A stretch of 64,000 bases of DNA from Bispira polyomma (lineage: Eukaryota), in NCBI GenBank assembly GCA_965649765.1, contig OZ287752.1, positions 24,242,001 through 24,306,000 on the forward strand, read 5' to 3'. Below, one piece after another: positions 4,435-51,800 of the stretch (position 1 is the first letter of the stretch; the number at the start of each line of letters is the position of its first letter). The translations under genes and the position numbers were made by a program. The notes beneath the pieces were generated by a model. That model made no database searches, was not told the origin of the DNA, and saw only the letters and a program-made list of their open reading frames with translations.

Positions 4435-4745
4435 GTAAGTAGAGTACAATTGTAAACATACAATATACAGCAGGCTGTGTGTTAGGTGAAAATGAAGGAA
4501 AACTTTAAAACACAATGGAGAGCAGGCTGTGTGTGATGTCTAAGTGTAGAAATTGTATGAAACACAATGGACAGCCGGTTTTGTGTGAATTGTAAGTGTA
4601 GCATGTGAATAAAAGTACAATAAACAGCAGACTATGTGTGAGGTACTAATACAGTACAAGTAGGAAATACAATGAACAGCAGACTTTGTATGAGATGTAA
4701 GTATAAACTTAGTATCAAATACAATGGACTGCAGACTATCACATG
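4435..4745 (+). repeat. Exon-3-derived ~50-57 bp minisatellite (gene A intron 3)
   Basis: Repeated AAACACAATGGACAGCAGGCTGTGTGTGAG..TAAGT units. Confidence 0.8.
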
Positions 4746-11556: not shown

Positions 11557-11659
11557 CCAGACCAATTTTTGTATGACTAGGTCCTACCGCACAAATATGG
11601 AACAGTCACTCTTTAGCTACAGTGCTTTATATTCAGTTTAAATATTCCACAAAGAAACA

Positions 11660-12245
11660 TAATCTAATCTAATCTAATCGTACTTTTATAGCGCTTAATC
11701 TTTGTACAACAAATTCTAAGGCGCAACTAACCTAAGCATTAATCAAAAAAATCAGAAATGGGGGACGGATGGTGGTCATAACCAGAGAGACTACCGGGAT
11801 GGTTTCGATGGCTAAGGTGGAAAGGCCTGTTCGAAAAGGTAGGCCTTCAGTTTATTCCTAAAAGAGGAGAACGTTTGAGCCAAGCGAACATGATCAGGCA
11901 GGCTGTTCCATATGAAGGGGCCATCATGAGCAAGGCAATGATTGAAATGTACTTTGGACTTGTGGATGCGAGGGTCGAAAGTGGGAATGTTAAGATATAA
12001 CTTATCAGGGTTACTGCGCCTAGTCCTGACTGAGCATGTATATTTGGATAGATGGGGGCTGAAATAGGTGGGTGATCCAGAATTTAGAAATTTGTATATA
12101 ATTGTTGCAATTTTGAAAGCAACACGATATTTTATTGGGAGCCAGTGGGGTGACTTAAGTACAGGAGTAATATGAGAAAATTTAGAAGTTTTGGCCACGA
12201 TGCGAGCCAATTAGTGTTGAACGTTCTGAAGACGTTTGAGGTCAC
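11660..12245 (-). mobile_element. L2 LINE 3' fragment, second family, (GATTA)n tail
   Basis: ORF 11812-12210 SHITPVLKSPHWLPIKYR...WNSLP...FRNKLKAYLF; tandem tail at 11660-11679. Confidence 0.9.
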
Positions 12246-12343
12246 TACAACATGTTTATGGGTGTTACGCAGTCTTCTATTTTAGAATTATATATAATTG
12301 TATCAATCATGCATTATATATTTCATAAAATCTTCACATATAG

Positions 12344-13758: not shown

Positions 13759-14034
13759 TTCCTCATACTGTAACAGTAACACAGACTCCATCAGATTTAA
13801 TCACAGAAGGCAATGTTTTAATACTGACTTGTGATGCCCAAGGTGGTAATCCTCCTGCAGTATTGTCTTATAACTGGAAATTTGTACCCCGTTATGAAGT
13901 CTCTAATGATCTTACTGAAGTTAACAGACAGTTAGTAATTCCTATGGCAGAAGATATACACTCAGGAGAATATAGTTGTGAAGCAACCAATACTGATGGT
14001 AGTGGTCGTAATGGTGAAGTAGTCTTAGTACACT
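13759..14034 (+). CDS. Gene A exon 5, I-type Ig domain
   Basis: 276 nt, open: LILTCDAQGGNPPAVLSYNW...HSGEYSCEATN; not in the ORF track, homologous to B exon 5. Confidence 0.9.
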
Positions 14035-14436
14035 GTTAGTATTAGTACAACTGATGCACAATACAACTGATTTTTAATTTAATAAAGATGGCTAATTTAT
14101 CATATTTCAAAAAACAAAGCTATATACATCATAAAATATGTTGTTTATGCTGTATACTTAGTAGTTTACATGTTAGTCATTACCATTTGCAACACATGTA
14201 CAAAAAGACAACTTATTTTCCTTAAAACCGTTTGTTGTTGACACACTTATTTTTCTTAGAAAACTTGCATGTAATGTGCAACAGTATGTTTTACAAAATG
14301 TTGATACATTTCAAAAATACAATGGTTTTAGATTTATAGTTTAAACACAGCAAAATATTTGAACAAAGAATATTTATAGTAGTCATGTTTAAATACATTC
14401 TAGCTTCTTACGGACGTTGGATTATATGGTTTTCAG

Positions 14437-14745
14437 ATAGTCCTAAGGATGTGAGCTCAGACATCCAAAAGTTTTCATACACAACTCTGAATAGTCATGC
14501 CTATTTGAACTGTACAGCAAGTTCGTACCCAAAACTCAACAAAGACAATGTTATCATAGACCATATGAACTCAAACCTCAACCCTGACCAGATACAATTT
14601 CTGCCGCAGGCTAATGAGATGGATCGCATTGTTATTCAAGTATTATTTGACTCAGTCGTCAAAAGTGATTTTGGAATATACAAGGTTATCCTGAACAATG
14701 GTATTGGAGAGCAAACTGTGATTGAAATGTATCTTCGTGAACCAG
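14437..14745 (+). CDS. Gene A exon 6, atypical Ig domain lacking the second Cys
   Basis: 309 nt; YLNCTASSYP...DFGIYKVILNNGIG. Confidence 0.88.
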
Positions 14746-14857
14746 GTCAGTTTTCATATTTTATTATTTTACTTTATAAATGACAACAAACATACAATTA
14801 ATATTGACATTCAAGCTCACATTTTAATATTTCAATGACACAGCATTTATTCTACAG

Positions 14858-15154
14858 GAAACCCAGAACCCCCACAGCATCTGACAGTGGAATCAGCCAC
14901 TGCTGTCTCCATCACATTGTCATGGATTGCAGGAAGATCTGGAGGAGTAAATCAGAGATTTACTGTTTATTATAGAAAAGATGGGGAAAGTAATATCAAT
15001 TTTGATAGTGGCATTCTGGATCCTGGTCCACACACTGAAGTGAATCATAAATTACATGATTTGCAGCCATAGACAACATATTTTGTTAATGTGAGAGCCA
15101 TCAATATACATGGCAAAAGTGATGATTTGGATGATGTTGCCATAGCCACCCTTG
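14858..15154 (+). CDS. Gene A exon 7, FN3 domain with premature TAG at 15070-15072
   Basis: 297 nt; PEPP..L.V..TAVSITLSW..GRSGG..Q.F...LQP*TTYFVNVRAIN. Confidence 0.85.
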
Positions 15155-16268
15155 GTAAAAGTCATTCAAAATACTGCCATTAAAAACTATTCAATATAAA
15201 TTTAGCATAACAGTGTAAATTTGAATATTTAAGTGAAATATGTTATAATATTTATGACTCTTAATAAACAGCATAAAAATACATTTAGAGTAAATCGAAA
15301 AATGCTGAACTAATAAGTATTAAAATATATTTATTAAAAAATCTTTGTTTTTTCAGATATTCCAGTTCTACACGGATCTACTGTTGCTGAAATTTACTCA
15401 GATATTACTCTATTGGCCTAATATAACAGGTCCAATACTCTGAAATGATTGTTGTAAAATGTACACCTTCTCGACCGATATGTCTTAAAATATTGAGCCC
15501 CAGTACTGCCCCTTCACATTTAGTTATCCCAGATTCTAATATTGATGTGGAATATTACCTTATCATTTACCAACAAGAAGAGGAAGTTTACAGAAGCAAA
15601 TTTTCATTCATAGATAAAACAGATAAAAAGCCAGCTTGGTTTCTGCAATTACATAAGAACTAAAATTGTCAGCCTTTATTTTTCAAAAGTGTTGGTTTAG
15701 TTTGCAGAAACATTTAAGTTCAATTGCAGATTCTTGGGTTAAATGAAATACAATACAATTTTCTATTGCAATGTATATATAAACCTATGTTACAGTGTAT
15801 TGTGAACAAAATGATGCAATTTCTGCAAAGGGAAGCACTGAAATAGGATTCCTCACTGGCTTAATTATATTGGCAGTATCAACCTTTGTGCTTTTTTCAA
15901 GTATTATTGCTTACATTATTTACAATAAGAGACATCACATGTCAGCAGAAAAAGATGCAACCAGCAATGTATGTGTTAGTCATATTTTATTGATGCAATA
16001 AGTAACAGTAGTATGCAATTAAACAATAAATTATTTTTGTAATTATTTTTGGACACATCAGTGCACAAACACATGTTAAGAAATGATTTTTAGAAAGTTT
16101 CAGAACCAGTATATTACAACAGTCCTGCTGAAATGTCTTAGTCAGCTCACTATGAAATGACTCAACATGAGGAACCTAAACCTCCAGCTGAATATGTTGA
16201 TTTGAAGGTATAGATAATAAATGCATATGTTAAAACAAATATGTTCGTTTTGTATGTGTCATTTTGCA

Positions 16269-17402
16269 TAGCACGACCCAATAGGGGTCTGCTACTTCAG
16301 TTCAACCAAAGAAAAATGTATTACTACTTTAAGCCCTAGGGGCAAATTCGACAACTGTAGCATGATTCATCCAACCGTGAACTGGCCAGCCAATTAGGGG
16401 TTTTCCCTCCCAAATTCTGCATTCCTGTCCTAATATCTTCCATTTTGGAAAAGGATTCAGCAGTATACACACGTACATTTTCCACCCACCTCCCCTTAAC
16501 CACACCATAAGTTAGGTTAAATAGGGTATTTTCAAAAAAATTTTAGTTAAAGGCACAGATTATGGTGCTATAGTAAATGTTCATTTCTTAGCTATGGCCA
16601 CTTTTGGTACTAAGCACATACTATGTTAAGAAGATCTCTGGTTGTGGACCCAAAAGGGCCCTGCTGAAAATCTTTATAAGATAGGAAATCACTTAAATTT
16701 GGCTGGATTTGTGGGAGTTTTTGAACTCGGAACTGTGTGGTGTTAGGTCCTTCCTCATAACCTACCCTCTGGTGTGGGCTACCAGGGGGGCAATGCTCTG
16801 TGAGGTAGGACGTCTCACTGCTAGGCGAGTCGGTGCTGTAAGTTCCGGGTTCCCAAAAACTCCAATTAAGGCTGCTAGCGCAGGCATAATACGGCTTATA
16901 AGTCCGGATTAAATAGGAAATTTACTAGTTAACGATTAAATATTGGTATGATTTAAAATGTTGAATGTAATGTCATTGGGCATAATTGTATTGAATAGTA
17001 TTGGTATGATGTAATGTCATTTCGCATAATTGTATTGAATAGTGTTGGATTGACGTTGGCCTTAGGGGCTGATTGTTATAAAGGTGTACTGTTGTATGCT
17101 AGGCAAATGCTTAGTCCTCAGATGTTGGTTTTCCCAGCTTGCTGCTTAATGCTTGTGAGGTTTTATCCTCTGTATTATTTACTACCTTGCTTTTGCTTGT
17201 GTTGTCATGTAATGGGTGATTTTAAAATTACCTTGTATTTTAATAATTTATACCTATTTTACACCTACCTGTATATAGATTTACTAACATGTACAGAATT
17301 TAAATAAATTCCTCAAACCATAGTTTCACTGTCTTCTGCTATACTTACCAGACTATCTTTCCACTACAACTTACCTTCTTTCCATTATACCAAGTAGAAC
17401 TG
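16269..17402 (+). mobile_element. Non-autonomous Ngaro-derived element in gene A intron 10
   Basis: Starts TAGCACGACCC..GGGTCTGCTACTTCAGTTC (A-like), ends GAACTG (B-like); absent from the paralogous intron of gene B (~27910). Confidence 0.75.
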
Positions 17403-18199
17403 TGTAAATTTCAATGCAAAATAATTTACATATTGATATATGCATTAAGATATCTTACATTTCCAATTGTTTAAAAATGAAGTGTGTTTATTATATAAAC
17501 CAGATATTTTTCAGTCTTATTATTATTACATATATTCTTCATTCTAGACTATCACTTACGAAAACCTGGGTCCTGTATTGTAGAAACTTTAATGTTTGTG
17601 TAAAACGTCAGTACAACTGCAGAAATTAGAATTAAGACTAGCATTTTATCAACATAATATTTTGGTTTACTTGAGGAGTACTAATATTTTTTTTAACAAC
17701 AGGAATCTATGATACTGCTAAAACGGAATAAAAAGAACTTTCAATTTTTTTTTTCATTTTTTTTTTTTCATTAAATTGGTACGCATGGGCGTACTGGCGG
17801 TAATGGTAGCTACGCCCCTGCTATCATGGTTTAAATAAGTTTCTCCATTTGCTACGAGCTATTTACATATTTGTCCATTAATAAATTATAATTTAACATG
17901 CAATTTATTAATATGCAATGGGGTTTAGGGAGTTGCCGGCGTCCTAGGCGGCCGCTTTTGGTATAAAAGAAAACATATGGGTCTAGAAACGAATATTCTG
18001 TTGTTATTTCCTCACCTTAGGCTTTGTATTTTTTATTTTGACCATTTCTTAAGTTCAAATCTCCCTTTACTTCGGAGAGTTTTATACTGAACTACCATTA
18101 TTCTACAATCTGTTATTTTATTCAATTCTATCTTCAAAAATTAGGCTATACCTATGGTATGAGTGCAAATATATGGTTTTGTTTTTATTTATGTCTAAT

Positions 18200-21315: not shown

Positions 21316-21370
21316 ATGAGTACCAGTATACAGACTATGTTCCTTGTTTTACTTTTCTTGGCGAAAAACG
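21316..21370 (+). CDS. Gene B exon 1, signal peptide MSTSIQTMFLVLLFLAKN
   Basis: 55 nt, G|GT donor. Confidence 0.8.
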
Positions 21371-24300
21371 GTATTTCTTTAAGACTTATTACTACTTCAA
21401 TATAAAATCTCCTTATTATATAATATTCACTGTTATGTTACAGAACGTATATATTAATATATAAACATACATCTTTTCATAACATATAGTAAATAATATA
21501 TCAACCAATGCAGAACAAAAAATAAACGCAGAATTTATCAGTATTTGTAAAAAATAAAATTAATATTTATATCTTAGCAAACCTGAATAGTTTTGAGAGC
21601 TGTCAAATTAAAGGAAACCAAATTCTTAGTGAATTTAATTGGTGTGTCAATCAATATTAAATTTTATGGAAACAAAAAGTATTTATATCATATAATATTA
21701 CACTTGCACTTTGTAAATATTTATATGTACTGCTTTATTTTTTTCTCATGCATGTATGTTAATTGTACTAATGGTACGACGAAAATAAATATATATGTTT
21801 ACTATTATATATGATTGTTTATTATGTGAATATTTTACTTTCTGTCCACAGTACTCAGCCAGGATCAAGTTGTGTACACAGAACTCTCATCTACTGCCAA
21901 TCTTCCCTGTGGTTCTACATCCAGACCATTTCCAGATGATGCCATCAGAGTTTACTGGTACAGAGGAGAGAATCCTACAAACACCACAGCCAGAATAATG
22001 TACTGCCAGTTCAGTGATTCAAACACCAGATACTACAATGGCTGCTCCCCTACTAAATACACCTGTAGTTCTGACAGAGTCCTCAGTATCAGTGATGTAA
22101 TGAACAAGGATGGCAACAAATATACCTGTTCAGCATTTGGTGCAACAGTATCATTTAATTTTATTGTAGAATTGATAACCTTGGGTGAGTTTTCATAATT
22201 ATTTTTTACTGAACATCCAATGACTATGTTTTACAATAGAGCAAATCATTTGTGACAAGGATATGTTAATCTACAAAAAGCCACTTCCTTCTTACGGACG
22301 TGTATGTATTTTTTTACATATTATGAAATTTTATAACCAATATTTCTCTCAAAAACATATCAGCATGAAGAAACAAGTTCAGATATACCTATTGGTGTCT
22401 CTAGGTTTACTACCATTATAACCATACACTCGTTTTATATGTAAAAATAGAAACCATTTAAGGCAATATTTTTATTTGAAAAACATATTTTCAAACTGAA
22501 CACAGCTTGATATTTTGTATATACCTACCATTATAGGGCCCGTATTCACGAAGGGACTTAGCCAGGTCTTAGGCTTAACTCAGTATACTTTTGTGCTAGA
22601 TTTAAGCCTAAGATCTGGCTAAGTCCCTACGGGCCCAGGACTTTTATATGTAAGCATTGCCTCCACAGGGGACTGCTGGTTCACTATTATCATTAGGTCC
22701 ATCTAAAGACATTTTGAGGATTTTGACCTCTAGTCATACTTTCTGTCTGTCCACATTCATTAACCAATCACATCACAGGTCACCTGTGGTGGATTTTTGC
22801 AATATTCTATATTGTACCTCGACCGCTGCCATTTTAACACATTACTTGATGCATTGATCAAGATTTCTTTTATTGTACCGTTTGTTATAGTCTAACTTGG
22901 CTAGTCAATTTCATAGGCAAATCCTATCACTTTGCTTTGCTGGCTTGGCTTTTTTCATATATGTTGTATGCCTATGTTGTATCTTTGGAGCTTAAAATTT
23001 GAATTACGTTTTAGTCAACATAAACTTTGTACATCTGTAGTAAGTTGTACAAATAAGTTTTCAAAACTAAGAATTTACTCACTTACCAATCTGACTTGAG
23101 CTACTTCACATTTCACCTTCCACCCATCCCTCAACTGAGGGAACTGTTTGTGGTTATCATATTTTAGGTATTACTTATGGATATATATATATATTTTAAA
23201 TAAGAGAATACATATTCTGAAGTTGGATTGTCGTTGCAATGTACAATATATGTTAAACAGTTGTTATCAACTCTGTTAATTATCATCTAATAATTATATA
23301 ATTTTTTGGGTGTATCTGTATACATATAAACTGGTGTATATGAAACACTATATGAGTAACACCCGTTATATGAAGTTGCACGGATACTTTATATCATTTG
23401 TTCAAATGAAAGACTTAAATATCAGAAGTATATCATGCTGTGTATATGTTTACATGTAGCCATAACACAAGCAGTACTTATATCCATGTTCAAAGAATTA
23501 ATTAAACTGAAAGAAAACATTGTAAGGAACAACAAGTGTTATTTGGAAAAACTCTCAGTACCATTTCTATCAAAACCGTTGAGCTCATTATGTATTAACA
23601 TTTAAATTTTTTATAGAATAGCTTAAAGATAATTTCACAAGCAAATCTAGGTAATGGTAAATATAGCATTTTGAGAATTTATTTTAGTTTCTCCATCTCA
23701 ACCAGTACTCAGTGGTTTAGTTTTTGAAGAAAACAATCCCTCAACAGTCCAATGCACAGTACAGTCAGTAAAGCCAGGTGTGGGCAGTGTGGTGTTTACA
23801 GTGACTGTAGATCCAGACTTTAGTGTCCAGAGTTCATACAGTGATTTATCAGAGGGATCAGCAGATCCTACAACAGGAGCCATGTCAGTGACTTACTTAC
23901 CACAGATCTTACTACATAGAAAATACAATGGACAGCAGGCTGTGTGTGAGGTGGTCTGGAGGGGAGGGGAGGAAACTGTGATATCAGAGGGTAAAACTGT
24001 GGATGTGAGATGTTAGTATATTATAAGTATAAGAACAAAATGGAAAGCATGCTTTTATTTTCCTGTCTCATGTACCTTTGTATCCACTAGTTTGGAGATT
24101 AGGCACTGTAAAGTTAGATAAGATTATTTGAAAGTTAATTCAGACGGGAAAACTGTAGATGTGAGATGTAAGTATACTTTATGTATAAAACACGATGGAC
24201 AGCAGACTGTGTGTGAGGTGGTCTGGAGGGAAGAGAATGTAGGTATAACATGGAAGTACAGTATAAGTATAATAACGCAATGGACAGCCAGCTGTGCGTG

Positions 24301-27300
24301 GTGCAATTATAGTTTAAGTATAAAAACATGATGGATACCCGGTTGTGTGTGAGGTTTAAGTATAGGTTCAGTGTAAAACACAAGGGACCACAGGATATGT
24401 GTGGGGTGTAATTATGGTATAAGTATAAAAACACAATGAGCAGCAGGCTGTGTGTGAGGTCTAAGTATAGTGTAAGTATGGAACACAATGGACAGCAGGC
24501 TGTTTGTAAGGAGTAAGTATAGTATAAGTATAAAACACAATAGACAGCAGGTTGTGTGTGAGGTGTAACTATAGTATAGGTATAAAAACACAATAAGCAG
24601 CAGGCTGTGAGTGAGCTGTAAGTATAGTATAAGTATATAAAACAGAATGGTGTAAAAGACAATGAACACCAGGATGGGTATAAGCTGTAAGTATAGTCCA
24701 ATTAGCCAAACACAGTGGACTATAAGTGTTACATAGTTAGAGCATACAATTAACAAAAGCATTAATATATCAGATTTATGCATGATATATCAAAACCAGT
24801 TTTGTAATTTAAAAAGGTTTGTTGGTATGATGAGTGTTATTATATGGTTTATTTATGTAGCATTGTTCTATCAGGTGTTACACTATTGTAGTTTCAGCCA
24901 CCAGTATCACTATGAGTCAGGAACCTAGTGGTTTAGTCCCAGAGAACACACCCATAACCTTTACCTGTGTGACTGATGAAGCCAATCCTACAGCTACTGT
25001 GACATGGACTGTAGATGGTAGTAGTAGGAGTTCTACCAGTGACTCAACTATAGATGAGGGTGATTACAGTGCAGTGAAGAGACAGAGTGTATTGATACTG
25101 AAAGCAGAGAGAAGAATACATGATAAAAATGTAAAATGTGTGGTCAGTGACAACACAGGAGTGACTGCTGAAGAAACATTAAACATAGCCTGTAGGTATT
25201 TGTAGCAGTTGCATGGAATATTCACTTAAACACTTATACTTTAACAAACATAAACAAAGTGTTAAAACATGTGATTTATGCTTTAACTAGCAGAACTTTG
25301 AGGAGTCGAACACTATGTACTGACTGGTGCTTTAAGACTAATCTAGTAGTATCAGATTTAATCAAAACGTATATTTTTATCTGATGACAACTATTTACAT
25401 GCATAGTATGCATCTCTAAGCAAATCTTTGAAGTGGAATTGCATATTGTGATAGCAAACCTATTAACGATATTACACATATAACTAAATTCTATTAACGT
25501 TCTATGTCTGTCAAAGAAGAACCTTTGGTCTTAAGATTAAAACTATCATCCAGAATTGTTACAATTAATTTCTTGTCATCATTTTCTTTCTAAATAACAG
25601 AAACCCAATGAACGCAAAAGATTCAAAACGAAAACCCATCACTGCATTATGTATGGCACTGTTATGTCAATATTAGTATATTGTTAGCAAGGTTCTTATT
25701 TAATGTGTGTCTACTACAGTAGAATTATATTCAGTGAAGTAAATGGCATATGAATTTTCACGGTTCTGATTAACATATCAGCACTGCACATTTTACATTG
25801 TAGTTCCCCATGATATAATGGTAACACAGAGCCCACGTAATCATGTTGTTGATGGAACTGCTTTAACTTTATCCTGTGAAGCACAAGGTGGTAATCCATC
25901 TACTGTTTTATCATATAAATGGACATTTGTTCCCCGTTATGAAGTTTTTAGTGCTATTACTGGAGATTCAAACAGACAGATTGTATTCATTGCACAAGAT
26001 AAACATGCTGGGGAGTACAGTTGTGTGGCAACTAATGCTGGTGGAAGTAGCTATGGAAGCCTTGATGTAGTCATAAACTGTGAGTGTTAGCAAGACTATT
26101 TAGATATACATTAATCTGTACTGTATTTTGAGAGTTAAAAACAAAATGTATGTCCCTGTTATGTTGATTTCAGATAGCCCAGTGGATGTCAGTACTGCTA
26201 TTCAAAAGGTATTATATGTAGGCACTGACAGTCCAGCATTCTTGAACTGTTCCGTAAAATCTCATCCACAACTCAGCCAAGATGACATCACAATAAACCA
26301 CATAAATTCAAATATTAATTCTCAGTTCATAGAAGTTACATCTGTCACAAACAAAATAGATGAGGTCCTGGTGCAAATAATGTTCAGCCAACTAAGTGTC
26401 AGAAACATTGGATTATACCAGATGGTGGCTAATAATGGGATAGGAAAAGACTTACTCATTGAAATGGATGTCAGAGAACAAGGAAGTATTTTAGATATAT
26501 AAGTATATTAACAGCACTGTAGTTAAACCAATATGTAATGTACATATACTGTAGTTTTAGTTTATGTCCCAATGTATTAATTTGACAAGTAAACATATTA
26601 CAGGTATTCCCGAACCTCCCCAGCTTTTGAAAGTAGAATATGCCACTGCTGTTTCGGTTACATGCTCATGGATTACTGGAAGATCTGGAGGGCCAAGCCA
26701 GACTTTTACTATTTATTATAGACAGGAAAATGACACCAATATATCATTCCAGGGTGATATTGTAGATCCAGGTTTAAACACAACTGTTACTTACACCTTA
26801 CAAGGTTTACAACCAATGATTCTATATTATGTTAGTGTGAGAGCTATCAACAAATTTGGAAGAAGTCTCGATGAAAACGATCTACAAATAAGAACTTTAG
26901 GTAAGTAGACAATTAAGGATAAATAAAATGAACATCAGTTTGATGCTGCACAATACCAATCAAACCATGATACATTTTGTGCATGACATTTTTACAATTG
27001 TTAGTTAAGATTATTTACTGTTTATGTTTTATTCTTTTTGTCAGAAATGCCTGTCCTGGATGGTCCACTCACTGCAGATGTATACTCAAATATAGTTGTT
27101 TTGTACTGGGCTAATATAACAGGTCAATACTCTGAAATCATTGTTGTGAAATGTACACATTCTGGACCGATATGTCTTGAAATTGTAAGGTCCAGTACTG
27201 CCCCTTCACATTTAGTTATCCCAGATCCAAATATTGATGTGGACTATTACCTCGTCATTTACCAACAAGATGAGGAAGTTTACAGAGGCAAATTTTCATT

Positions 27301-28083
27301 CATAGATAAAACAGGTAAAAGCTAGCTATTGTTTCTGCAATTAGATTATAACTAAAGCTATCAGGCTTTATTTTTAAAAGTATTGGTTTAGTTTATTTAG
27401 AAACATTTTGTGAAATACAATACAATTTTCTATTACAATTGCTATTTAAACTTATGTTTCAGTGTATTGTGAACAAAATGATGGAATTTCTGCAAAGGGA
27501 AGCGCTGAATCAGGATTTCTCACTGGTTTAATTATATTGGCAGTAACAACCTTTGTGCTTATATCAATCATTGTTGCCTATATTATCTACAAAAACAGAT
27601 CTCACATGTCAAAGGCGGAAAATGGAACCAGCAATGTATGTATTAGTCATATTTTATTGATGCAATTAGTAACAGTGGTATGCAATTAAATATGAATTAC
27701 TTCTTATTTTACCTTTTGATACATCAGTCCACAAAGCATATTAAGAAATGATTTTCAGAAAGTTCAAGACCCAGTATATTACAACAATCCTACTGAAATG
27801 TCTCAGTCAGCTCAATATGAAATGACTCAACATGAGGAACCTAAACAACCAGCTGAATATGCTGATTTGAAGGTATAGATACATATGTTAAAACAAATAT
27901 AATACTTTTGTATGTGTAGTTCTGTGCAAGATAATTTGCATATTGATGATATTTGCATTAGTATATTTTACATTTCCAATTTCTCAGTGTGGTTATAAAC
28001 CAGATATTTCTGAGTCTGATTATTGCCACATTTATTTTTTATTCCAGACTATGACATATGAAGACCTGGGTCCTGCATTGTAG
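21316..28083 (+). CDS. Gene B: intact Ig5-FN3-FN3like-TM tyrosine-motif receptor, ~828 aa (nephrin/Sidestep-like IgSF)
   Basis: 11 phase-compatible exons totalling 2487 nt with no internal stop; only irregularity is the exon 6 donor. Confidence 0.9.
21852..22184 (+). CDS. Gene B exon 2, V-like Ig
   Basis: 333 nt, phase 1-1. Confidence 0.92.
22536..22636. mobile_element. Small palindromic MITE (Harbinger-like termini)
   Basis: GGGCCCGTA...TACGGGCCC termini plus internal GGGACTTAGCCAG..CTTAGGCTTAA inverted pair; absent from the paralogous intron at ~48630. Confidence 0.75.
23688..24011 (+). CDS. Gene B exon 3, C2-type Ig
   Basis: 324 nt, open. Confidence 0.92.
24130..24700 (+). repeat. Exon-3-derived minisatellite (gene B intron 3)
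   Basis: About ten degenerate ACACAATGGACAGCAGGCTGTGTGTGAGG-TGTAAGTATAGTATAAGTAT units. Confidence 0.85.
24892..25191 (+). CDS. Gene B exon 4, C2-type Ig
   Basis: 300 nt; FTCVTDEANPTATVTW...VKCVV. Confidence 0.9.
25804..26079 (+). CDS. Gene B exon 5, I-type Ig
   Basis: 276 nt; LSCEAQGGNP...YKW...HAGEYSCVATN. Confidence 0.92.
26174..26485 (+). CDS. Gene B exon 6, atypical Ig
   Basis: Ends 26482 (GA donor) or 26485 (GT donor), both phase 1. Confidence 0.85.
26604..26900 (+). CDS. Gene B exon 7, FN3
   Basis: 297 nt; PEPP...SW..GRSGG...LQP...Y.VSVRAIN. Confidence 0.92.
27045..27314 (+). CDS. Gene B exon 8, degenerate FN3-like domain with C-x6-C
   Basis: 270 nt, open, homologous exons in A and C. 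Confidence 0.85.
27463..27635 (+). CDS. Gene B exon 9, transmembrane
   Basis: GFLTGLIILAVTTFVLISIIVAYIIY followed by KNR. Confidence 0.88.
27759..27872 (+). CDS. Gene B exon 10, cytoplasmic KVQDPVYYNNPTEMSQSAQYEMTQHEEPKQPAEYADLK
   Basis: 114 nt, phase 0-0, same length in A and C. Confidence 0.85.
28048..28083 (+). CDS. Gene B exon 11, TMTYEDLGPAL*
   Basis: CAG acceptor after pyrimidine tract; homologs at 17548 and 54278. Confidence 0.8.
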   Translation, partial: TMTYEDLGPAL

Positions 28084-30786: not shown

Positions 30787-30841
30787 ATGATTACTGATAT
30801 ACAGACTGCATTCTTTGTTTTACTTTTCATAGAGAACAAAA
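30787..30841 (+). CDS. Gene C exon 1, signal peptide MITDIQTAFFVLLFIENK
   Basis: 55 nt, A|GTACGT donor; GGAAGT at 30679. Confidence 0.78.
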
Positions 30842-33800
30842 GTACGTTTTTACAATTTATTTTCACTTCCCTGCAAAATCTAGAATATATGAAAGCTTTT
30901 TCTTATGAAAACATAGAGGATATAATATGTCAATACAAACATAAAATATAGCTAGGGTGTGCTTTTTACAATATTTTATAATACATTGCTTCCAGATTAA
31001 TACATTTGAGTATATGGAAGTTTTTTCGTATGAGACATAGAGAATATAATATGTAAAATAAAAACATAGCTGGGGTGTGCTATACATAATATTCTATAAT
31101 AAATTATTATTAATTTGCCTTCAGATTAATACATTCAAATATTGTAATGGTAATTTCACTTCTCATGTCGGATAAATATAATACTAACATATAACTGTCA
31201 TATATGACTGGTCATTGTGTTCATAGTTTCTGAAGATAAAGTCGCAAGTAGTGTATGTTGTACATTCTATCTGCAGTTCTCAGTCAGGATCTGATTGTGT
31301 ACACAGAAATCTCATCTACTGCAAATCTTCCCTGTGGTTCCACATCTAGACCCTTTCCAGATGATGCTGCCAGGGTTTTCTGGTATATAGGTGTTGATAC
31401 TGCAGATTCAAAAAACGAAATACTACACCATCAGTTCAGTGATTCATATTCTAGATACTACAATGGCTACTCCTCTCCTAAACACACCTGTAGTTCTGAC
31501 AGAGTCCTCAGTATCAGTGCTGTAGAGAATGACGACGAGACTACATATACCTGTAGAGCAATTGGTTCAGCAGTGGATTATACTTACATGGTGGAATTAA
31601 TAACATTGGGTGAGTTCTTATTTTATCAAAGCCATCTTTAAACTTAATTAAAAAGGTTAATGTAGGAGTGTTTCTATATTATCTGAATATGTTACTAAAT
31701 GTTACACAAACTAGGATGTGACGTGCATTTTGGGTCACCAAAGAACTGTCATATTCTTGTCACAGGTGATTTAAAAGCTTGCTGCACCTAAATTTATATC
31801 ATATTTGTATTGTAGGCACTGTAATATGCGTAAAATGCCAATACGTATGGTGGCATATTCGTGGCGTACTTTTTTTTTAAATTGGTACAAAAAGTAAGTC
31901 GAACTGGGTCAGGGGATAACTAGTGTGATAGACTATTTAACATTGTCATTCAGATTTGTACACTCCCATACAGGTAAATTAGAAAATCATGGTATAGTAG
32001 TGCTGATTAGCATTATGTCAAAATAATATATATTTCTGTGAAGTGTTTTTATGGACCCATTTAGCTAGCAGATCCATTTTATTATCTTGCATATCCGGAA
32101 TGTAAACTAAAGTTTACATTATATAGAAACATATTTTCGTAGTAGAACATGCACTACTTCAATGATTAAAATTAAATCCTGACAAAACTGAATTTATTCT
32201 CATTGGTAGTAAGAAACACAGAGTACCTGAGATTGTTATTCCCCATTACACTAATGGGCAATGATATATAGCCCTCTGATCACTCTGAACCTTGGTGTTA
32301 CCATTGACTCTACTTTCTTATGTGATACACCCATTAGTATCATTTGTTAGTCTTGTTACTATCGTGATATCAAAATAATTAGGAATCACTTGTCACTGCA
32401 TACTAATTCCCGTAATAGCATCCCTTGTAACTACCTTCAAAGCTGTTATTTCTCAACATTCCTCCTATCGTGTTACTCACCTCTCTTCCAATAACCTCAA
32501 AAGGGTAAAGAGACTTTCTGTATCCTCTGTTAAACCTACCAAGAAGACTGGATCTTTTACGTTCTCTATTACTGCCCCAATGTTATGAAACAGTCTCCCT
32601 GCAGAGCTTTGATCATTTGAAAAGCTTTCTGGTTTTCAGAAAAAGCTTAAAACCCATCTATTCAAACAACCCCTATAGTTCCCTCATTGTACACCCCACA
32701 TCCTTCCTTACGACTGTGGAAATGTTTTTGGACTTCTATATTGGTTAACTGATTCCGATGTTGCACTTTATAAGATGCCTCGAATCAAAAATGACTGGAC
32801 TGACCTCCTGCTATAATGCAAGGTGTGTAATATACTAAGGGATTTTCAAACTTCCTCACATTTGATTTTCTATGAAAACTGACTCAGAACTTATATCTGA
32901 AAAAAAAATTGGAATTGTTTTTTTAAAAGACACCCTAAAAGCCAAATTGTGTAATATCCTACTATCGGAATATTTTTAAGATCTATTAACAGTGTCCTAG
33001 GGTTACCTTGTAGTTGGTTTAGAACACAGTAATACTAATAGCCTTTGGGATAATTAGTTTATTCTAGTTGGTAATTTACTTTTATGTACAGACTGAAAAA
33101 CAAAGGTCACCAGTTTAAGATGGTTATAAAGTCACAACTTAACTGAGATTAAGTTAAGAGTTTAAGGTTACCCTATATTGAGTGTAAGTTTGAATTTAAG
33201 GTCATCTGTTTACGTTTACTGCTTAAAAGTGACCTCAGCCTAAGATACATGATATGGAATTTTGAGTATATAAGAGATTAAAAGAAAGCACCAAACCCCA
33301 ATCAGGAAGTAGGGTTGGATAGTAGGTTTTAAAATGTCATGGCTTATGTCATGCATTATGGTCTTTTGTGATATATTTCCACACACATTCTGATGTCCAT
33401 GTGCCATGGCTTGAGGTTATGCCTTAGCTTTGAGTCTGTCAGTGGGCCCCAACCCGTTGTAGCTTTAAATTGAAACAGATGGGAGTTTTGGCTGCCAGCT
33501 GAAAGGACTAGTGTATTCCTTATGGCCACTATTGGACATAATGCCGGGTTGTGTATATGGGGCACCTTAATTATTCTGATTGAATTCCTATCCTGGAGGG
33601 TTTTGGACCACTTGACTATTACGTGGAGACCCAGGGGAATAAAGAACACATCCACACTGGCTAACTGTTCCAGTGGGTTGAACGAATTTAATGAGTGAGG
33701 TACCAGGTTTGATATCCTGAGAAAAGAAAAGAAGGCTAGCAAGTAAGCTAACTTGAAAATTTGGCACATATACATGGTGTCACTGATTTGTACTATTTGA

Positions 33801-36800
33801 GTAAACAGAGATATCAATTACTTTACTGTGAATTCTTGCTCTGAAAGGTCTTTGCAAGGCTAGAGCCTTTTGGAAATACTTGAGACGCTGGTCTGTGAAG
33901 GCTGAGACATTGATTCCATACAGACTAAGCTTAGCTTTATTAGCAGCCAAATAATTGGCAATTGATGGCTGGGAGACTTTACTTGCTACCGATACTTGGA
34001 GAAATGACAGTAGTACTGTGAGTGAAATGTAGTCAATGTCAATGCTTGCAAATATGGTGTAAGCTAGAAATACTCTAAACATGCTTTTATATGTGTGTTG
34101 TGTGGCAGGCCTAAAGGTCTGGTGGGCTATGTGTGCTGCCTAGTCAGCTAATTGACACACCAGTAGTGATATATCTGAAATAGATTACATACTCCAGTCA
34201 AAATTTAGTATGTTATCTGATACTTCTACCCATTGGGGTTCTGACACTAGCTGTCGCAATTTAGTATTTGGATCAGGGGTTTTATGCCATCTAGATAGCA
34301 AATCAGCTGTCACATTAAGTTTGCCTAATATATGCACAGGCCTTAAGTTAATATCTGCCTCTGCTACTCCCATAAAGATATTTCATGCAATAGCTGCGAG
34401 ATTCTTTTGTCTTACCCGAGTTCAAAATAGTGACTACTGCTTGGTTGTCACAATGTACAACTAGCTTTTTGCCTTGCCATGTGTCTTTCTAGAGGCGAAG
34501 AGCGACTAGAATATTTAGCATCTCCAAGTAGGCTATATTAAGTTGTAAATAGTGAAGTGGAAGCAATTTCGTATAGATTACATTATTGCATCTACCCCCT
34601 AATCCTGTGAGGCAGGCATCTAGTTCAATCTGGTCAGTGACCGGGCTATGGTCGAAGAAGGCCTTACCATTGAATTTTTTAGTGAATTTAGTAAACCAGT
34701 TCAAATCTTGAAAAAAGGGGAGCCCTAGTTTGATGCGTTTACATCAAGGGCGCTACGTAGGACGTCCAGCATCGTATTGAGAAAGATTCTTGTTATGCGC
34801 ACACATTCTGATGTATAAATGAGGGACCCCAGCAATGATTGCTGGGGTATATAACTTATTACTTCATAGCCCTTTGTACACATGACGTAAGACAATGCCT
34901 CACTTAGGCATTGGAATATAGCACTTCCGTGTCTATAGCCAAATAGCAGGCATGTGTCGACATAATACTTATCTAGCTTCAGGCCTAGCAAATCATAGTC
35001 AGCTGGGTCTAACTTGACTTGACGAAAAGCGTGACTTATGTCCAACTTGTAAATTAATGCGTTTTTACCCAATTTGGTTGTCTCATTTGTGATGTCATCA
35101 ATTGTTGGAAGCGTTAACAAGAATTCCATGCCCAAGTACTGATTTTGGTGTATTGCTGCATTTACTGATTGGCCATGAGGAAAACTCGTATCAATTATAA
35201 CCCTTTTATGAGGGGCGCCAGGTTTTGCTCTGGTCATGAATGGTGATATGTTCAATCCTTCAATGGGAGGCCGATTAAACGGACCCAAAATTGCCCCATA
35301 ATCCTTTTCATCTTTCAAATATGCCTTAACGTCATCTTTGAACTTGCAAGCTGAGTGGTGATTTTGTTCATTATGCTTCAACTCACAATCTATGTCAAAA
35401 TCTAGTGGGAAGCCATACCGAATCAAATATGGTAACTGTCTATCCCAGTAATTTTTTAAAAGGTTTTTCCATTTGTCATAGTTGAGCTGTGAGTGTACAA
35501 CCAATTGTTTGTTCAAGAAATTGTGCTGAGTACTACTTCTTACCTCTATATGCATTTCAATGGCCGAGAGGTTTTTGAAACTCGGTTTTTCAGTGCTCGA
35601 ATTTATGATTTTATTAAGTGGAATGAAGCCGAACTTACCTTTTGTCTGGCTATTCCATTTTTGAAACGTTTTCTCATTTTTTACCCTTGCAACTATTTTC
35701 TTTTGTTTATTTTTTACTTGGAGTTGGAGGTTGTACTTGTCCTCTTGTACTCCACACGTGTCAGTATTTACTTTTACTGGTTCCTTGCACCTGGCAGTGT
35801 GTGTGCCCACCTTTGTGACATTTTGAGGGGGGGGGGGCTATTTCATTGAGAGGGAGAAGCGGGTCAAAGCGATTTTCAACAATTGGTGGTTCAGGCCTGG
35901 GCAATTTGCAAGCACCCACCTTCTTTGTGTTATGACAATTAGAATGATATACTTTACAGACATTTTTATGTACAATATCACATTTTTTTACACTTGCAAT
36001 GGCTTTCAAGGAACGACTGGGCAGGCTGTGTTTTATTTGAATTGCATTTGTCTACTAACCTGAAGCACAACTTGTGCATACGTTTTATTTGTAAATTTAG
36101 ACCAATCAGCTCTCCAGTTGTAGCTTGTGCCATTGCTATTACTCTAGTTACAAACATTTCTAGACAATGTGCGATTTGTTCTGTTTTTTAAATTACTTTT
36201 GCTATCTGTACATTTTATTGTTAAACCACCTGATTGCACTGCCTTTCGTAGTGCCTCGTTTTTTGCCCCAGCTACCTTTTTTCTACAATCTTTTTCCAGG
36301 TGGGGGAAGTTTTTGCCCATTGCAAAACAAGTCGCACACACATGTGTATAAAATTTGCCACTAGTTTCGTGGTCACTCTTATGGGGACATGTTCCTTTTT
36401 GATAAAATTTACAAGGCATGCTTATGCTACTGCCACTTTTACCGCCTTGTGACTGAGAGGAATTTTGAGCAGGTACATGTTTTTGAGCATGAGCTCATCT
36501 GAACCTGTCGATTTTATGTGTATCGAGCCAGGACATTTTGCCTTCCTCCATTTTACATAGAAGGACGGCGTGACTGCCTTTGGCAGCTGACCAGCTATGG
36601 TTATGGCAATCTGCCATCATTTCTGCGAAGTATTGTAAAATTGCATTTTTAATTTCTACATTTGTTTCTTCTTTTGCTAGAACACTAAACTCCAAAACCC
36701 ATTGAGCCGTGGAAAGATTGTCGTAATACATTCGATTTTTACTCTGACCTCCTAGGATAAAATTCCGGGGCCAAGGGACATGTTGCTTAACCCATACCTG

Positions 36801-42800: not shown

Positions 42801-45800
42801 TACCAGTTAATATAACAGCATAAACACAATCTTCAACCAAATATACTTTAATTTTTTTTTACTCTAAATCGAGTTGTTTCTTCCATCACCACTTGTTATT
42901 CACGTCTTTTACAAGGTTCGTATATAGCAGTATACCCCTGAGCATGTATATGCTGACTGGATCCTTGAAATTTGAAACTAGAGATACAAATGACATTAGC
43001 CATATGACTTTTTTGTACCTACTTGACTTTCAATGGGGTGGCCAGCAGTTAAAATCTTTACATTTTGCAAACAATAAAGTACTTTTCCGCTACCTCTCCT
43101 GAGCTTTGGCACATGCTTTTCTAAAGAATTTTAACCTTCCTTTGCAGGATAAGCATTAGCCCTGCTGTGCACCAACATTTTTCACATTGATGCACATACA
43201 ATTGTCCACCAGAAGGATATGCTTTGTAAATACAGTTTACTCTTTGAAAGAATAGACAAGGAATACTGAGATTCACTAACTACCCTTTCGCTTCACGGAT
43301 TCCGTCAAATTGTATGTTTTTTACACAATTTCCCTCTGGTGTATACCTAAATTGCCATGAAATAGCAGTCTGAAAGAAAACTTGAGCTTCTGCTGTTCGT
43401 CTCCTCACTGGCTGAAGAGTTCAATTAACCTGGGGCCTGTATATCGAAGCCTTTGTTACAGAAACAAGTTCGTTAGGTCTCAGTTAAGGCTTAGTTTGCA
43501 AAGTTTAAAGTAAATGAAAACCTTAGTTAGTTTACTGTGGATTTACTTCATTCGTAAAACCCCCAAAATTGAACGACAACTCTAGCCCTGTCGTTATATT
43601 AGCAGAACTTGGCCGCTAGCTGACCTAGTATGCCCACCCATGGTCAGGCTTAACAATTTTCACTTTTAAAAGGTTTTAGCTTATTATTTAATGATTGTAA
43701 ACCTCTACTTATTACTAACTTGTACAAAATATTGTCTCAAACTATTATTTTACTGTCTTACACACCTAAACCGTACTTACCTTATTTCTACTACCTTCAA
43801 AATTAGCTGGACTGTCAAAATAAAATTCTCTAAAAATATATTATATTTCAGAGGCCAACATAATATATTTAATTCATGTGCAGTAATATCACATGATATT
43901 TATATAATCTATGGCAAATAAAGTGCTCTGTTCTCATGAATGAGCAAGTAAAATAAAAAATCCATGCTGTAATATCATACCTATAATTTTTTATGAACTA
44001 TATAGTCAGTGTGCAACAATAAGGTATTAATGTGTTTTTTATATTACTTTTCTTGCAGAAAATGTACATCTTTATAACTTATAACTACATCAATATGAAA
44101 TATCCTTCTTAGATAATATGCAATCTTATGTTTATATAATGTAGACATAATTTCTAAAATATAAGCATCAATTAATCACTATATGAATATGTCATAATAA
44201 CTTGTTATTCATTTTCATTCAGATTAATATATAAAACTATTGTCAGTTTATCCTGGGGTTCTTTGTCATTGCAGACATATCCTGATGCTGTTGTTCAACA
44301 GTCTGTTTAAGGGCTATTACTGGTGGCATTTTGTTAATGGTCATCAGATACTGTTTTGTCCTGATCAGATACTAAAAAGACTTCACCAACAGACATGCCT
44401 TTTACATGTTCTTGATCATTCAGTAACTTGCCTTCTTTTGTGCACTGATTTGAAGAGTAGTTGGGCAGATCAGTCAATTGCGGAAGGATAGTTCATCTAT
44501 TACTTTAAGATCATTGTCTTCTCTTGGTAGAACACCATTTTGCCGACTCAGGCCATCTACATTACCCAACTTCCTGCCTGCTCTATGTTCTATAGTAAAG
44601 TCATACTGTTGGAGATAGGTAACCCATCTTGGAATTCTACCAGTTGTTTTCTTTTGATCAAAGAGCCACTTTAAGGCTATATGATCTGTTACTATCTTGA
44701 AATTATTACCTTTTAAGTATGGCTCAAAATGTTTCACTCCAAGTATACAAGCTAAAGCTTCTAGTTCTGAGACACTATATTTCTTCTCTGCATCTGTGAA
44801 TTTCTTTGCAGCATAAGATAAAACCCTCTCCTTTCCATCTTGAATCTGGCTAAGGATCATGCCAGCTCTATGGACACTAGCATCAGTATACAGTATGTAT
44901 GGCTGCTGGTATCTGGCGTAAGCTAGTATTGGGGAAATAACCAAAGCATCTTTCAAATCTTGGAAAGATCTTTCTTGAGCTTCTCCCCAAACAAATGGAG
45001 TGTCTAGCTTTGTAAGTTCTGATAGGGGTAAGGCCTGTTCTGTGTACTTCTATATGAACCGACGATAAAAGCTTGTGATTCCTAAATAACTGCCTAATTC
45101 TCTAAGAATAACCTGGCAAGTATCTGGTAAAGGCTCTACTCCCTTTGCACCAACTACATTCCCTAAAAATCGCACCTCCTTGCAACAGAACACACACTTC
45201 TTTGGTTTTAATTTGAGATTTGCAGCCTCTAACCTATCAAAAACAATTTTCAATCTTTCTAAATGTTCATTGAAAGTCTGTGAATAAATGATAATATCAA
45301 GATAGACCAGGCAAATTTTCCATACAAGACCTTGGAGCACACTAGTCATAAGTCTTGCAAAAGTAGATGGTACATTCTCCAATCCAAAAGGCATTCTTTC
45401 AAACTCATATAAACCATCATGAGTGACAAAAGCAGTCAGTGGCCTGGATTCTTGAGCCATCTCGATTGGCCAATATCTGCTCTCCATGTCAAGAGTAGAA
45501 AAATATGAGGCCTTTGAACTTCCCAAAGATTCCATAGAATCATCCACTCGAGCTATTGGATGACTATCTGGTATAGTATTCGAATTCAGAATCTCCAGGA
45601 ATCATCTGGCTTTTTAACCATAACCACCGGTGAAGCATATGGACTACGAGAAGGTCTTATAATTCATATTATAATATATATGTCTTTTCACTCATATCTC
45701 GTACTTGCTGTGATATTTCATCTCTTATTCTTGGGTTGCTGCCATAGGGAGCAGACCTAAATGTTCTAGGTCCTAGGTTTATTTCATGTTTAAGAACATG

Positions 45801-48800: not shown

Positions 48801-51800
48801 TATTTTTTTTTATATTTTGTGGGTACATGTGCATATATATAAACTAGTATATATGAAACACTATATGAGTAACACCTGAGTAACACATATGACGTTGCAC
48901 AGATACCTTATGTCATTTGTTCAAATAAAAGACTTTAGAACAAATTTGATAATAATTATATCATGTATGTGTGTATACCTTTTTACATGTAGCCATAGTG
49001 CAAGCAGTACTTATATCCATATTTAAAAATACATACAAGTCAAAAAAAATTACATAACAACAAGCGTAAGTATAGTTTCCTTAATCATATTGTGTACATT
49101 GTTTTGTTTTATCTGCTTTATTATTACTTATTACTTAGAATGAATGTTTACTCAGATTAATAAGTTGTTGTTGCTTCAAGTTTTCGAAGTTTAGAAACTA
49201 AGTTATTATTTCATTATAAGTTACTTACATATTACAATAATGTAAAATTAATAAATGAATGTAATTTAATAATAAATCTAGGTAATGTTAAATTTACTAT
49301 TTTAAAAACTTATTTTAGTTTCTCCATCTCAACCAGTACTCAGTGGTTTAGTTTTTGAAGAGAACAATCCCACAACAGTTCAATGCACAGTACAGTCAGT
49401 AAAGCCAGGTGTGGGCAGTGTAGTGTTTACAGTGACAGTAGATCCAGACTTCAATGTCCAGAGTTTAGACAGTGATTTATCAGAGGGATCAGCAGATCCT
49501 ACAACAGGAGCCCTGTCAGTGAATTACTCACCACACATCTCACTACAGAGAAAACACAATGGGCAGCTGGCTGTATGTGAGGTGGTCTGGAGAGGAGGGG
49601 TAGGAACTGTGACATCAGAGGGGAAAACTGTGGCTGTGAGATGTATGTATATATTAAGTACGAAACACAATAGACAGCAGGTTGTGTGTGAGATGTGAGC
49701 ATAGTATAAGTATAACAACACAATGGATAGCAGGCTGTATGTAAGATAAAAGTATAGTATAAGTATAAAAGCACAATAGACAGCAGGCTGTGTGTGAGGT
49801 GTAAGTATAGTATAAGTATAAACACTATGAACAGCAGGCTGTGTGTGAGGTGTAAGTATAGTATAAGTATATAAAATTCGATGGACAGCAGGCTATGTAA
49901 AAATTGTTAGTATAGTGTAAGTATTAAAACTCAATGGACAGTAAGCGACAATGGACAATGCGAAGTGTAAGTATAGTACAAGTATATAAAACTCAATGGA
50001 CAGCAGGCTGTGTAAAAATTGTTAGTATAGTGTAAGTATAAAAACTCAATGGACAGTAAGCTGTGTGTGAGGTGGTCTAGATCGAAGGGAACTGTAACTT
50101 CAGCATATGAAAGTGTGGCTGTGAGATGTAAGTATAAGTATGAAAGACAATGTACACCAGACTGGGTATGAGCTGTAAATATAGTCTAATTAGCAAAATA
50201 CAGTCAAGTCTAAGTGTGATATGGTTAGAGCATACTACTAACAAAATTAATGATATATCAGATTTATTGATGATATATCAAAAACAGTTTTGTAATTCAA
50301 AATATTTGTTGATATGATAAAAACTGTATCAATGTCAGTATACATGAGGGTTATTATATGGTTTGTTTGATAACCTTGTTTTATAAGGTGTTCTACTATT
50401 GCAGTTTCAGCGACCAGTATCATCATGACTCAGTCACCCAGTGGTTTAGTCCCAGAGAACACACTAATAACCTTTACCTGTTTGACTGATGAAGCCAATC
50501 CTACTGCTACTGTGACATGGACTGTAAATGGTAGTAGCACCAGTTCTACCAGTGACTCTACTGTAGATGATGGTGTTAACAGTGCGGTGAAAAAAGAGAG
50601 TGTATTGATACTGACTGCAGAGAAGGGATTTCATAATAAAACAGTCAAATGTATGGTCAGTGAGAACACAGGAGTGACAGCTGCAGAAACATTGAACATA
50701 GCGTGTAGGTATTTGTAGCATTTACATGAAATTGTCCCTCTTACTTTAACATATTTAAATAAAGTGCTAAAACATGTGATTTATGCTTTAACTAGCACAA
50801 TTGTTTGAAAGTTAAACATTGTGTTATCGGCAACTATTTCAAGATCACTCTAGTAGTATCAGATTTATTCAGAATGTATTTTTGTACCTAATTTAACTGA
50901 TCATCACTATTTAAACAAATGTTTGAAGTGAATTTTTTAAATATTGCCATACAAAGCCTAGCGAAGATATATTATTCATATTGCTCAATACCGTTAAAAT
51001 TTTCTGTTCATTAAATAAGAAACTGTTATCTAAAGACTGAAATGATCAACCAGAATTATTACAATTAATGTCATAATTGTTTTTTTAATCAGCAGAAAAC
51101 TATTGAAAGCAAAACATACAGCAAAACAAAAGACCAGTAACTGCTTCATATATGCTACTGTCATTTTAGTATTAGTGTGTGGTTAGCAAGGCTCTAATGT
51201 TATGTATTTCTGTGTTTGCTATGGTATAATTAAATTCAGTGCGTGATATAATCGGAAAACTACCCAAGTGATGTATATTAAAAAATTATATGACGAAAGA
51301 ACATAAACAGTACTATATAAGCCTAGGAGGGTGAGTATTGTGCATTTTATCTTTTTAAGTCATATCATTTTTAATATACACCAGAAGTGTAGGTTTTCGT
51401 TTTTATCCACTTATAAAATATCATTACATTAAGTTATATAGTTAAAAATATAACATAAACAGTCCGAAAAGGGTGTAAAATATTAAAAATTCAAGACAAA
51501 ATAAACAAAAAGTACTGACTTGCTACCTTAAAGAATTAACTTCAAATAGAAACTTCTACCACTCTAAAAATCGCATTTTGTTCACAATATAATTGAATAA
51601 TGCTTATATTTTCTACATATCGAAATTTTTAAACAATAAGTTGTTTACTTTGACAGTATTAAAACAAACCCAAACTGTATAAATTCTTTGTTTACGTTTC
51701 AAAACCTTCCATTATGACGTCACAATACAAATTTGAAAGCCAAGAAGTACAGAGTTGGTACCATAAAGAATTAACTTCAAACTCATATTTATAAGGCACT

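Follow-up and report, generated by a model that had tools for sequence, protein, structure and literature searches.

Gene content of the locus

The window, which is the whole stretch of 64,000 nucleotides analysed here (C5:24242001-24306000), belongs to a Bispira polyomma genome of 1.035 Gb in 75 contigs. It holds three related genes, A, B and C, on the forward strand (Table 1); gene copies outside this set are labelled D, E1, E2, F, G, H, I, J and O. Gene B has 11 exons amounting to 2490 nt and 829 amino acids, with no internal stop and with GT-AG borders in all 10 introns, and as read from the DNA it is a putative open type-I membrane receptor of the Ig/FN3 kind, having a signal peptide, Ig and FN3 domains, a single transmembrane (TM) segment and a short tail (signal and TM judged by eye). 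The seven ectodomain exons specify five Ig or Ig-like and two FN3-type domains. Pfam matches above the cut-off were obtained for four of the nine exons scanned (V-set in exon 2, C2-set_2 in exon 4, Ig_3 in exon 5 and fn3 in exon 7); exon 6 gave a weak I-set match, and exons 3 and 8 of B gave none. The structure of exon 8, predicted from a 24-sequence family alignment, is a beta sandwich (pLDDT 90.1) whose best PDB match, and the one match at E <=0.001, is a fibronectin type III domain (E 7.6e-4, TM score 0.65). The next rows are mostly FN3 too, and the domain appears to be FN3-like by fold.

Gene A is broken in the present assembly by two stops together with a net loss of 4 nt and the loss of the donor in exon 8, as a sequence-only reading of the locus had held. 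Its exon 3 is separated from the next exon by 8 kb (window 4700-12300) with recombinase-retrotransposon-like ORFs, and the 80%-type exon 4 is absent from A. Exons 2-11 of C are open; between its exon 1 and V module and its exon 3 (30787-49319) there are retroelement-like ORFs (RT, RNase H, integrase-like). Towards the end of the window lies gene G (58300 onward, to C5:24320800), which has an H-type exon 8, TM and the shared tail with no match to exons 5-7 in the DNA retrieved around it, and which may have undergone an internal deletion or be a shorter form. Tandem repeats in intron 3 of A, B, C and further copies are made up of the last part of exon 3 with its donor site (79-90% over 23-50 nt), and a 180-nt direct tandem duplication (95%) is found at window 56548-56901.

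Table 1. Coordinates of the genes and features discussed (window positions unless C5 is given)
Feature	Position	Strand	Remarks
Gene A, exons 5-11	13759..17583	+	broken; stops at 15070-15072 and 16139-16141; 4-nt net loss and lost donor in exon 8
Gene B, all exons	21316..28083	+	open
B exon 1	21316..21370	+	signal-peptide-like, by eye; promoter/exon-1 class common to A, D, G and the 43.8-kb remnant
B exon 2	21852..22184	+	V-set Ig; not specific to C (dS 0.47, as against 0.19 to G and 0.26 to D)
B exon 3	23688..24011	+	Ig-like, without Pfam match; 89-93% to 10 of 11 compared copies
B exon 4	24892..25191	+	C2-set Ig; 86-90% to all 9 other compared copies
B C-lineage block	25192..27082	+	intron 4 to start of exon 8, including exons 5-7 and introns 5-7
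B exon 5	25804-26079	+	Ig
B exon 6	26174-26485	+	Ig-like, weak I-set
B exon 7	26604-26900	+	FN3
B exon 8	27045..27314	+	hybrid domain, predicted FN3-like: 13 residues C-type, 76 A-type
Junction	27083..27084	+	both parents have these two bases; within the codon for Tyr13 of exon 8 (residue 646 of 829); frame kept, without indel; identical in D
B A-lineage block	27085..28083	+	remaining exon 8, TM, tail and last exons, introns 8-10
B TM exon (exon 9)	27463-27635	+	hydrophobic segment, read by eye
B tail exon (exon 10)	27759-27872	+	
B last exon (exon 11)	28048-28083	+	
Exon 1 + V module heading C today	30787..31609	+	class unlike B's; 17.7 kb from C exon 3
Degenerate exon-1 block	43800..44160	+	B's class; start codon deleted, no V exon found; upstream of C exon 3
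Gene C, exons 3-11	49319..54322	+	all open; exon 8 53295-53564, TM 53706-53869, tail 54040-54153
Tail exon copies	27759-27872, 16094-16207; C5:24320477-24320590, 16.73-16.81 Mb, 11.14-11.17 Mb		
Intron 3 repeats	24030-24700, 49550-50200, 4340-4740		

The identity switch in exon 8

Within exon 8 of gene B the sequence switches from the C lineage to the A lineage, and this switch is real. Exons 5, 6 and 7 of B are 90, 88 and 88% alike to those of C versus 68, 56 and 66% for A, and the first 38 coding nt of exon 8 are 97% alike to C and 53% to A. Over the rest of exon 8 the affinities are reversed (90% to A, 54% to C), as they are in the TM exon (84 and 44%) and the tail exon (91 and 58%). The introns follow the same pattern: introns 5-7 align to C at 83-86% with positive scores and do not align to A, and introns 8-9 align to A (86 and 84%) but not to C. 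For intron 10 the match to A is limited to the parts flanking an insertion of about 1.1 kb in A. By self-BLAST, B 25791-27084 matches C at 83% and B 27104-27917 matches A at 84%.

The sequence-only reading had described B as a C-type ectodomain joined to an A-type TM and tail. The identity of B and C that it reported over the first 34 nt of exon 8 is exact, with one mismatch (27079) in the first 40. Its claim of C-likeness over exons 4-7 and their introns stands for exons 5-7 and introns 5-7 but not for exon 4, which is 85-91% alike among all 10 compared copies, and its claim of A-likeness from about 27085 through introns 8-10 stands for exon 8, TM, tail and introns 8-9, with intron 10 interrupted by the insertion in A. 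A C-type ectodomain is likewise too broad a description: it fits exons 5-7, but exons 2-4 are of a family-wide kind and 76 of the 89 residues of the last ectodomain are A-type.

A formal three-way test bears out the switch. Using 391 informative sites from exon 7 to exon 9, MaxChi gave a score of 236, equalled in none of 2000 permutations, and placed the break between 27082 and 27085, with C-like sites making up 150 of 174 on the left and 19 of 217 on the right. The controls E1 and F scored 12 (104 and 85 of 2000 permutations), and the same break was returned by all six triplets of B or D with A and with C, E1 or F (chi-square 229-259, 0/2000 permutations each). The junction falls in the last ectodomain, in the predicted A-B turn of the FN3-like fold between strands 9-12 and 16-21. 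The parents are about 54% alike there (about 46% diverged), and a long near-identical tract at the crossover is absent, the longest blocks identical between A- and C-type genes in exon 8 being of 12 nt, the nearest at 27106. In the predicted receptor the middle of the ectodomain is C-type, and the membrane-proximal domain, TM and tail are A-type.

Phylogeny on either side of the junction

Trees were built from 16 copies; G and J were not included, nor were the upstream remnants, as exons are missing from them. Three deep lineages (A-type, C-type and H-type) are present on either side of the junction, and B and D are the only members to change sides. On the left, B and D group with C, E1 and F (support 100/100; an A-type grouping is rejected, p-AU 1.1e-5), and on the right with A and E2 (support 100/100; a C-type grouping is rejected, p-AU 8.4e-4). 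These trees rule out A or C as the recombinant. As the distance between A and C is deep both left and right of the junction, a single event in the ancestor of B and D would account for both trees, and the description of B as a genuine C5'/A3' chimera, situated between a gene of the A type and one of the C type, is upheld. A clade of B and D has a support of 94 and 95 on exons 9 and 10, and the two also share the junction; no support for it was found on the left (p-AU 0.32, 2/100 bootstrap trees) or on exon 8 alone (47/0).

Authenticity, age and maintenance of the hybrid

Copy D was found by genome search at C5:69.93 Mb, about 45 Mb from B, and is 88% alike over the full query across the junction. 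It is broken by a stop in exon 5, and its junction is that of B to the base. Decayed A-type exons 5-7 and a V exon lie upstream of it (C5:69943400-69947700, minus strand), ending inside exon 7 and adjoining the 5' flank of D. No colinearity between D and the window was found outside the genes, and D as a haplotig of B was ruled out, the flanks not being shared.

Public contigs from three runs add to this picture; the runs belong to one study, cover no more than two samples, and may be what the assembly was built from. A 267-nt contig with 17 differences from B, the exact count of D, spans the junction in two of the three runs, among 24 of 364 pieces listed, and three contigs depart from B at 27084, as expected of C-type genes; contig depths (B 11-76, D-like 10-65) carried no weight in the reading. 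An assembly chimera, one of the two outcomes that would have undone the sequence-only reading, can be practically dismissed: no support for it was found, and although the 167-nt piece identical to B (27055-27221, in 3/3 runs) reaches only 28-30 letters left of the junction, under the 31-letter bridging threshold, and the runs may be those that were assembled, B differs by about 10% from either parent, its junction recurs in D, and the D-matching contig crosses it.

The dS over exons 5-7 is 0.20-0.28 between B and the C-type genes and 0.175 between B and D, and over exons 9-10 it is 0.17 between B and A and 0.07 between B and D; these distances suggest that the hybrid event is old and has since been duplicated, as D. 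In simulations without indels, a neutral frame of the size of B survived in 10 of 2000 cases at a branch length of 0.035 and in 0 of 2000 at 0.05, and the end branches of the tree measure 0.035-0.055. Since neutral survival of such an open frame is rare, B has probably been under selection since its formation, and it is likely to be still in use. Pairwise dN/dS is 0.30-0.54 in exons 5-7; in the TM and tail it is 0.70-0.92, a value from few sites and pseudogene partners which counts against constraint there.

The transmembrane segment and tail

Exons 10-11 of B encode a 49-residue stretch with five tyrosines, and the tails of A, B and C have their tyrosines at the same positions (7, 8, 20, 34 and 42). 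An ITAM is absent from all three. The ITIM consensus (as in PMC9546547) is matched by A, not by B or C, and by eye also by the last exons of D and the H-type genes. The last tail motif is TAYEEF in C and MTYEDL in B, where the ITIM consensus is lost by a change of I to M, and the juxtamembrane cysteines of C are absent from B. The proposed rewiring of B to another signalling tail would consequently amount to less than was claimed, the tails of B and C being homologous tyrosine for tyrosine with a modest change of motif.

It could not be maintained that B alone preserves an A-type tail lost in A, or that it "rescues" the tail: 11 of 22 matches to the tail exon are strong, and they place copies 84-91% alike at eight other loci, including H1 and H3, which are open in the eight exons examined. 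The A-type TM exon is confined to A, B and D (3/3 matches) and E2 is broken, so that in the assembly no copy other than B still carries an intact A-type membrane-proximal domain and TM. A role of B in recognition or adhesion would fit its architecture and the dynamics of its family. Three copies of the tail exon lack a matched exon 8 nearby.

Gene order, 5' ends and spacers

The geometry of B is of the anti-Lepore kind, with the 5' part from the downstream lineage (intron 4 to 27082), the 3' part from the upstream lineage (27085 on) and one in-register switch. The hybrid sits between the parental types, as A-B-C in the window and with an A-type remnant before D, and at 25.4 Mb E2 (A-type) followed by E1 (C-type) gives the parental order without a hybrid. 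The spacers are less simple. That between B and C shares colinear blocks at 70-79% with the E2-E1 spacer, but it has no copy between A and B, where past the last exon only the exon-1/V blocks match (71-77%); the A-B spacer is closer to the C-G spacer (76-87%). Age and insertions may have erased a duplication of the spacer.

The 5' end of B is not that of the module which heads C today. This candidate was rejected because exon 1 and the V exon group apart, the V-exon dS being 0.47 to C versus 0.19 to G; the exon-1 block of B groups with G and D, and the present module of C with two others (support 96). The exon-1 remnant at 43.8-44.2 kb does belong to the class of B (split 100/99), which also has A, D, G and the second module of E1, and it lies upstream of a reverse-transcriptase/RNase H element as well as of C exon 3. 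A search for a V remnant from 31.7 to 49.3 kb gave none. The remnant is probably the original 5' end of C, of B's class and since lost, and C itself may be a composite gene or one broken at its 5' end.

The view that A-hybrid-C is the product of unequal crossing-over thus survives in its gene order and at the level of lineages, and fails in that the spacers are not copies and the 5' end of B is unlike the module of C. For these two reasons the A and C of today may not be the direct one-step parents, and a one-step anti-Lepore account would seem to hold only at lineage level. The search for a reciprocal fusion, which the sequence-only reading had proposed, found no A5'/C3' gene among eight matches to C exons 8-9 in the one assembly.

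Exchange across the family

At least 56 genome matches were obtained for exon 8 and at least 100 for exon 7, a list which may include unrelated FN3 genes; nearly all are on C5, in clusters (11-25 Mb), which suggests a large family of some 50-100 Ig/FN3 receptors. The three lineages are 54-77% alike in exons 5-8 but 85-93% in exons 3 and 4 (E1 exon 3 excepted), and 85-96% in exons 3, 4 and 10 taken together. The tail exon of A, B and D is 88-96% alike to that of the H-type genes, with a pS of 0.09-0.25 (about 22 sites) versus 0.52-0.75 in exons 7-8, and this likeness ends at both splice sites, the flanking introns being unrelated. It appears that B is one of several exchange products in a mosaic family. 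The V exon is more variable, at 72-90%, with dN/dS up to 0.99 (B-G).

No named homologue was found in a 5.8-billion set with exon 8, exon 7 and exon-8 alignment queries, which is weak evidence. An exon-8 profile search of other assemblies gave 23 matches, 19 of them of single-exon size, and the six looked up were unnamed. The only named cluster, an abalone hemicentin-1-like one, was rejected as kin, the match consisting of 11 short stretches; the best ESM Atlas score (0.87) was below the useful range, and a PDB sequence search returned generic FN3 proteins only.

Origin of the hybrid gene

The origin which we consider rather more probable than any other, though with modest confidence, is one old unequal crossover in a tandem array of A-type and C-type genes, the product of which was kept by selection, so that exons 5 to early 8 of B are of the C lineage and late exon 8, TM and tail of the A lineage. 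Through misalignment, exon 8 of a C-type gene would have come to lie in register with its A-type counterpart, and the exchange would have been resolved within the two shared bases. A 12-nt block common to both lineages lies about 20 nt further downstream and may have seeded the pairing. The hybrid presumably survived because it was in frame and its junction lay in a predicted loop of the FN3-like domain. A segment comprising A and the hybrid would later have been copied to 69.9 Mb, giving D, which has since been broken, whilst A degenerated and the spacers and the 5' end of C took their present form through insertions and deletions. Against this origin, the ancestors of the two lineages are 0.42+0.44 (0.86) changes per site apart on the right side, and parents so distant, with two shared nucleotides, would make a poor substrate for ordinary unequal crossover.

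The same gene order could have arisen without unequal crossover at the junction, although we regard this as unlikely, if a tandem A-C duplication (A-C'-A'-C) was followed by a microhomology deletion fusing C' exon 8 to A' exon 8. The two shared bases would suit such a deletion, as would spacers that are not copies of the same age and the greater closeness of B to D than to either parent (dS 0.175 versus 0.20-0.28 on the left, 0.07 versus 0.17 in exons 9-10). Deletions are also common among members, as seen in the upstream remnant of D, in G without matches to exons 5-7 and in C without its own V. However, a random deletion would hardly fall in the exact codon register of a homologous exon, a register which points to homology-guided pairing, and no A-C'-A'-C array was found in the regions fetched.

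Less credible again is a long conversion tract or double crossover by which an A-type gene would have received C-type sequence from intron 4 to 27082, the left border of this patch being masked by the homogenised exons 2-4. Regional exchange is frequent in the family, given the likeness of exons 3, 4 and 10 (85-96%) beside that of exons 5-8 (54-77%), and the 5' end of B does differ from the present module of C. However, intron 2 of B matches C, D and G and has no match to A, the exon-1 block is 71% alike to A versus 75-79% to the C remnant, D and G, and no A-specific sequence was found upstream of the junction; B also lacks the extra exon-4-like domain found in A- and H-type genes.

A more speculative idea, to which we give little credence, is that modules are swapped between distant lineages by a homology-poor or RNA-templated process and that B is a selected product of it, on the basis of the two-nucleotide in-register join and of the tail exon bounded by splice sites. 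If this were true, such a module-swapping route would keep re-pairing recognition domains with membrane anchors and tails. That B and D are native and the A and C lineages each gained a new half is very improbable: the H-type exon 8 is B-like at its start (74% over 38 nt, followed by identical YSD codons), but two events at the same base would be needed, and A, C and H are deep on both sides with only B and D switching.

Comparison with known systems

In the anti-Lepore globins, the upstream gene is followed by a hybrid with a downstream 5' and an upstream 3' part and then by the downstream gene; these are recent, rare alleles formed between close paralogues. B shares this gene order but is old, is present in the contigs of 3/3 runs and has already been duplicated as D. 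Closer in kind is FCGR2C, a hybrid Ig-superfamily receptor with an FCGR2B 5' part and an FCGR2A 3' part which lies between both and is ascribed to unequal crossover (PMC6563257). The exchange was aided by high homology, the two modules of about 80 kb being 94-95% alike, and it set the ectodomain of an ITIM receptor on an ITAM tail (PMC6563257). B resembles FCGR2C in having a downstream-type 5' and an upstream-type 3' part and in sitting between the parental types. It differs in that its parents are about 54% alike, the spacers are not copies, the break is inside the ectodomain and an ITAM is absent from A, B and C.

Among invertebrates, the Alr genes of Hydractinia form a large cluster of divergent type-I IgSF genes and pseudogenes with a V-set N-terminus, a cryptic membrane-proximal FN3-like fold, tail tyrosine motifs and one to three Ig domains, for which conversion or unequal crossing over was suggested by the authors (PMC9546547). 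The family of B shares the clustering, the V-set N-terminus, the predicted FN3-like membrane-proximal fold and the tail tyrosines. However, B differs in carrying five Ig or Ig-like domains and two of the FN3 type; the comparison is one of architecture, and B is not assigned to the Alr family. Region-limited homogenisation and the reassortment of ectodomains and tails are familiar from the Siglec-11/16, Siglec-5/14 and CEACAM pairs. Regional gene conversion in clustered receptors has also been described for the teleost protocadherins (PMC1852091). In all of these, as in the family of B, homogenisation among paralogues is limited to regions, but the likeness of the B-family tail exon ends at the splice sites and its introns are unrelated. 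In an opsin case, introns are converted and exons diverged, the reverse of the pattern of the tail exon (PMC3924837). A literature search, which mostly did not extend to subscription journals, found no description of the family of B or of such a chimera in invertebrates.

Chimeras are to be expected in tandem receptor families, and B changes no general rule. It is a clean, base-resolved invertebrate counterpart of FCGR2C, notable mainly for the unlikeness of its parents (about 46% diverged). It appears that an undescribed large cluster of IgSF receptors evolves by module exchange, much as the immune receptor clusters of vertebrates do, and B, C and the H-type genes would provide a natural set for asking what the TM and tail contribute to a given ectodomain.
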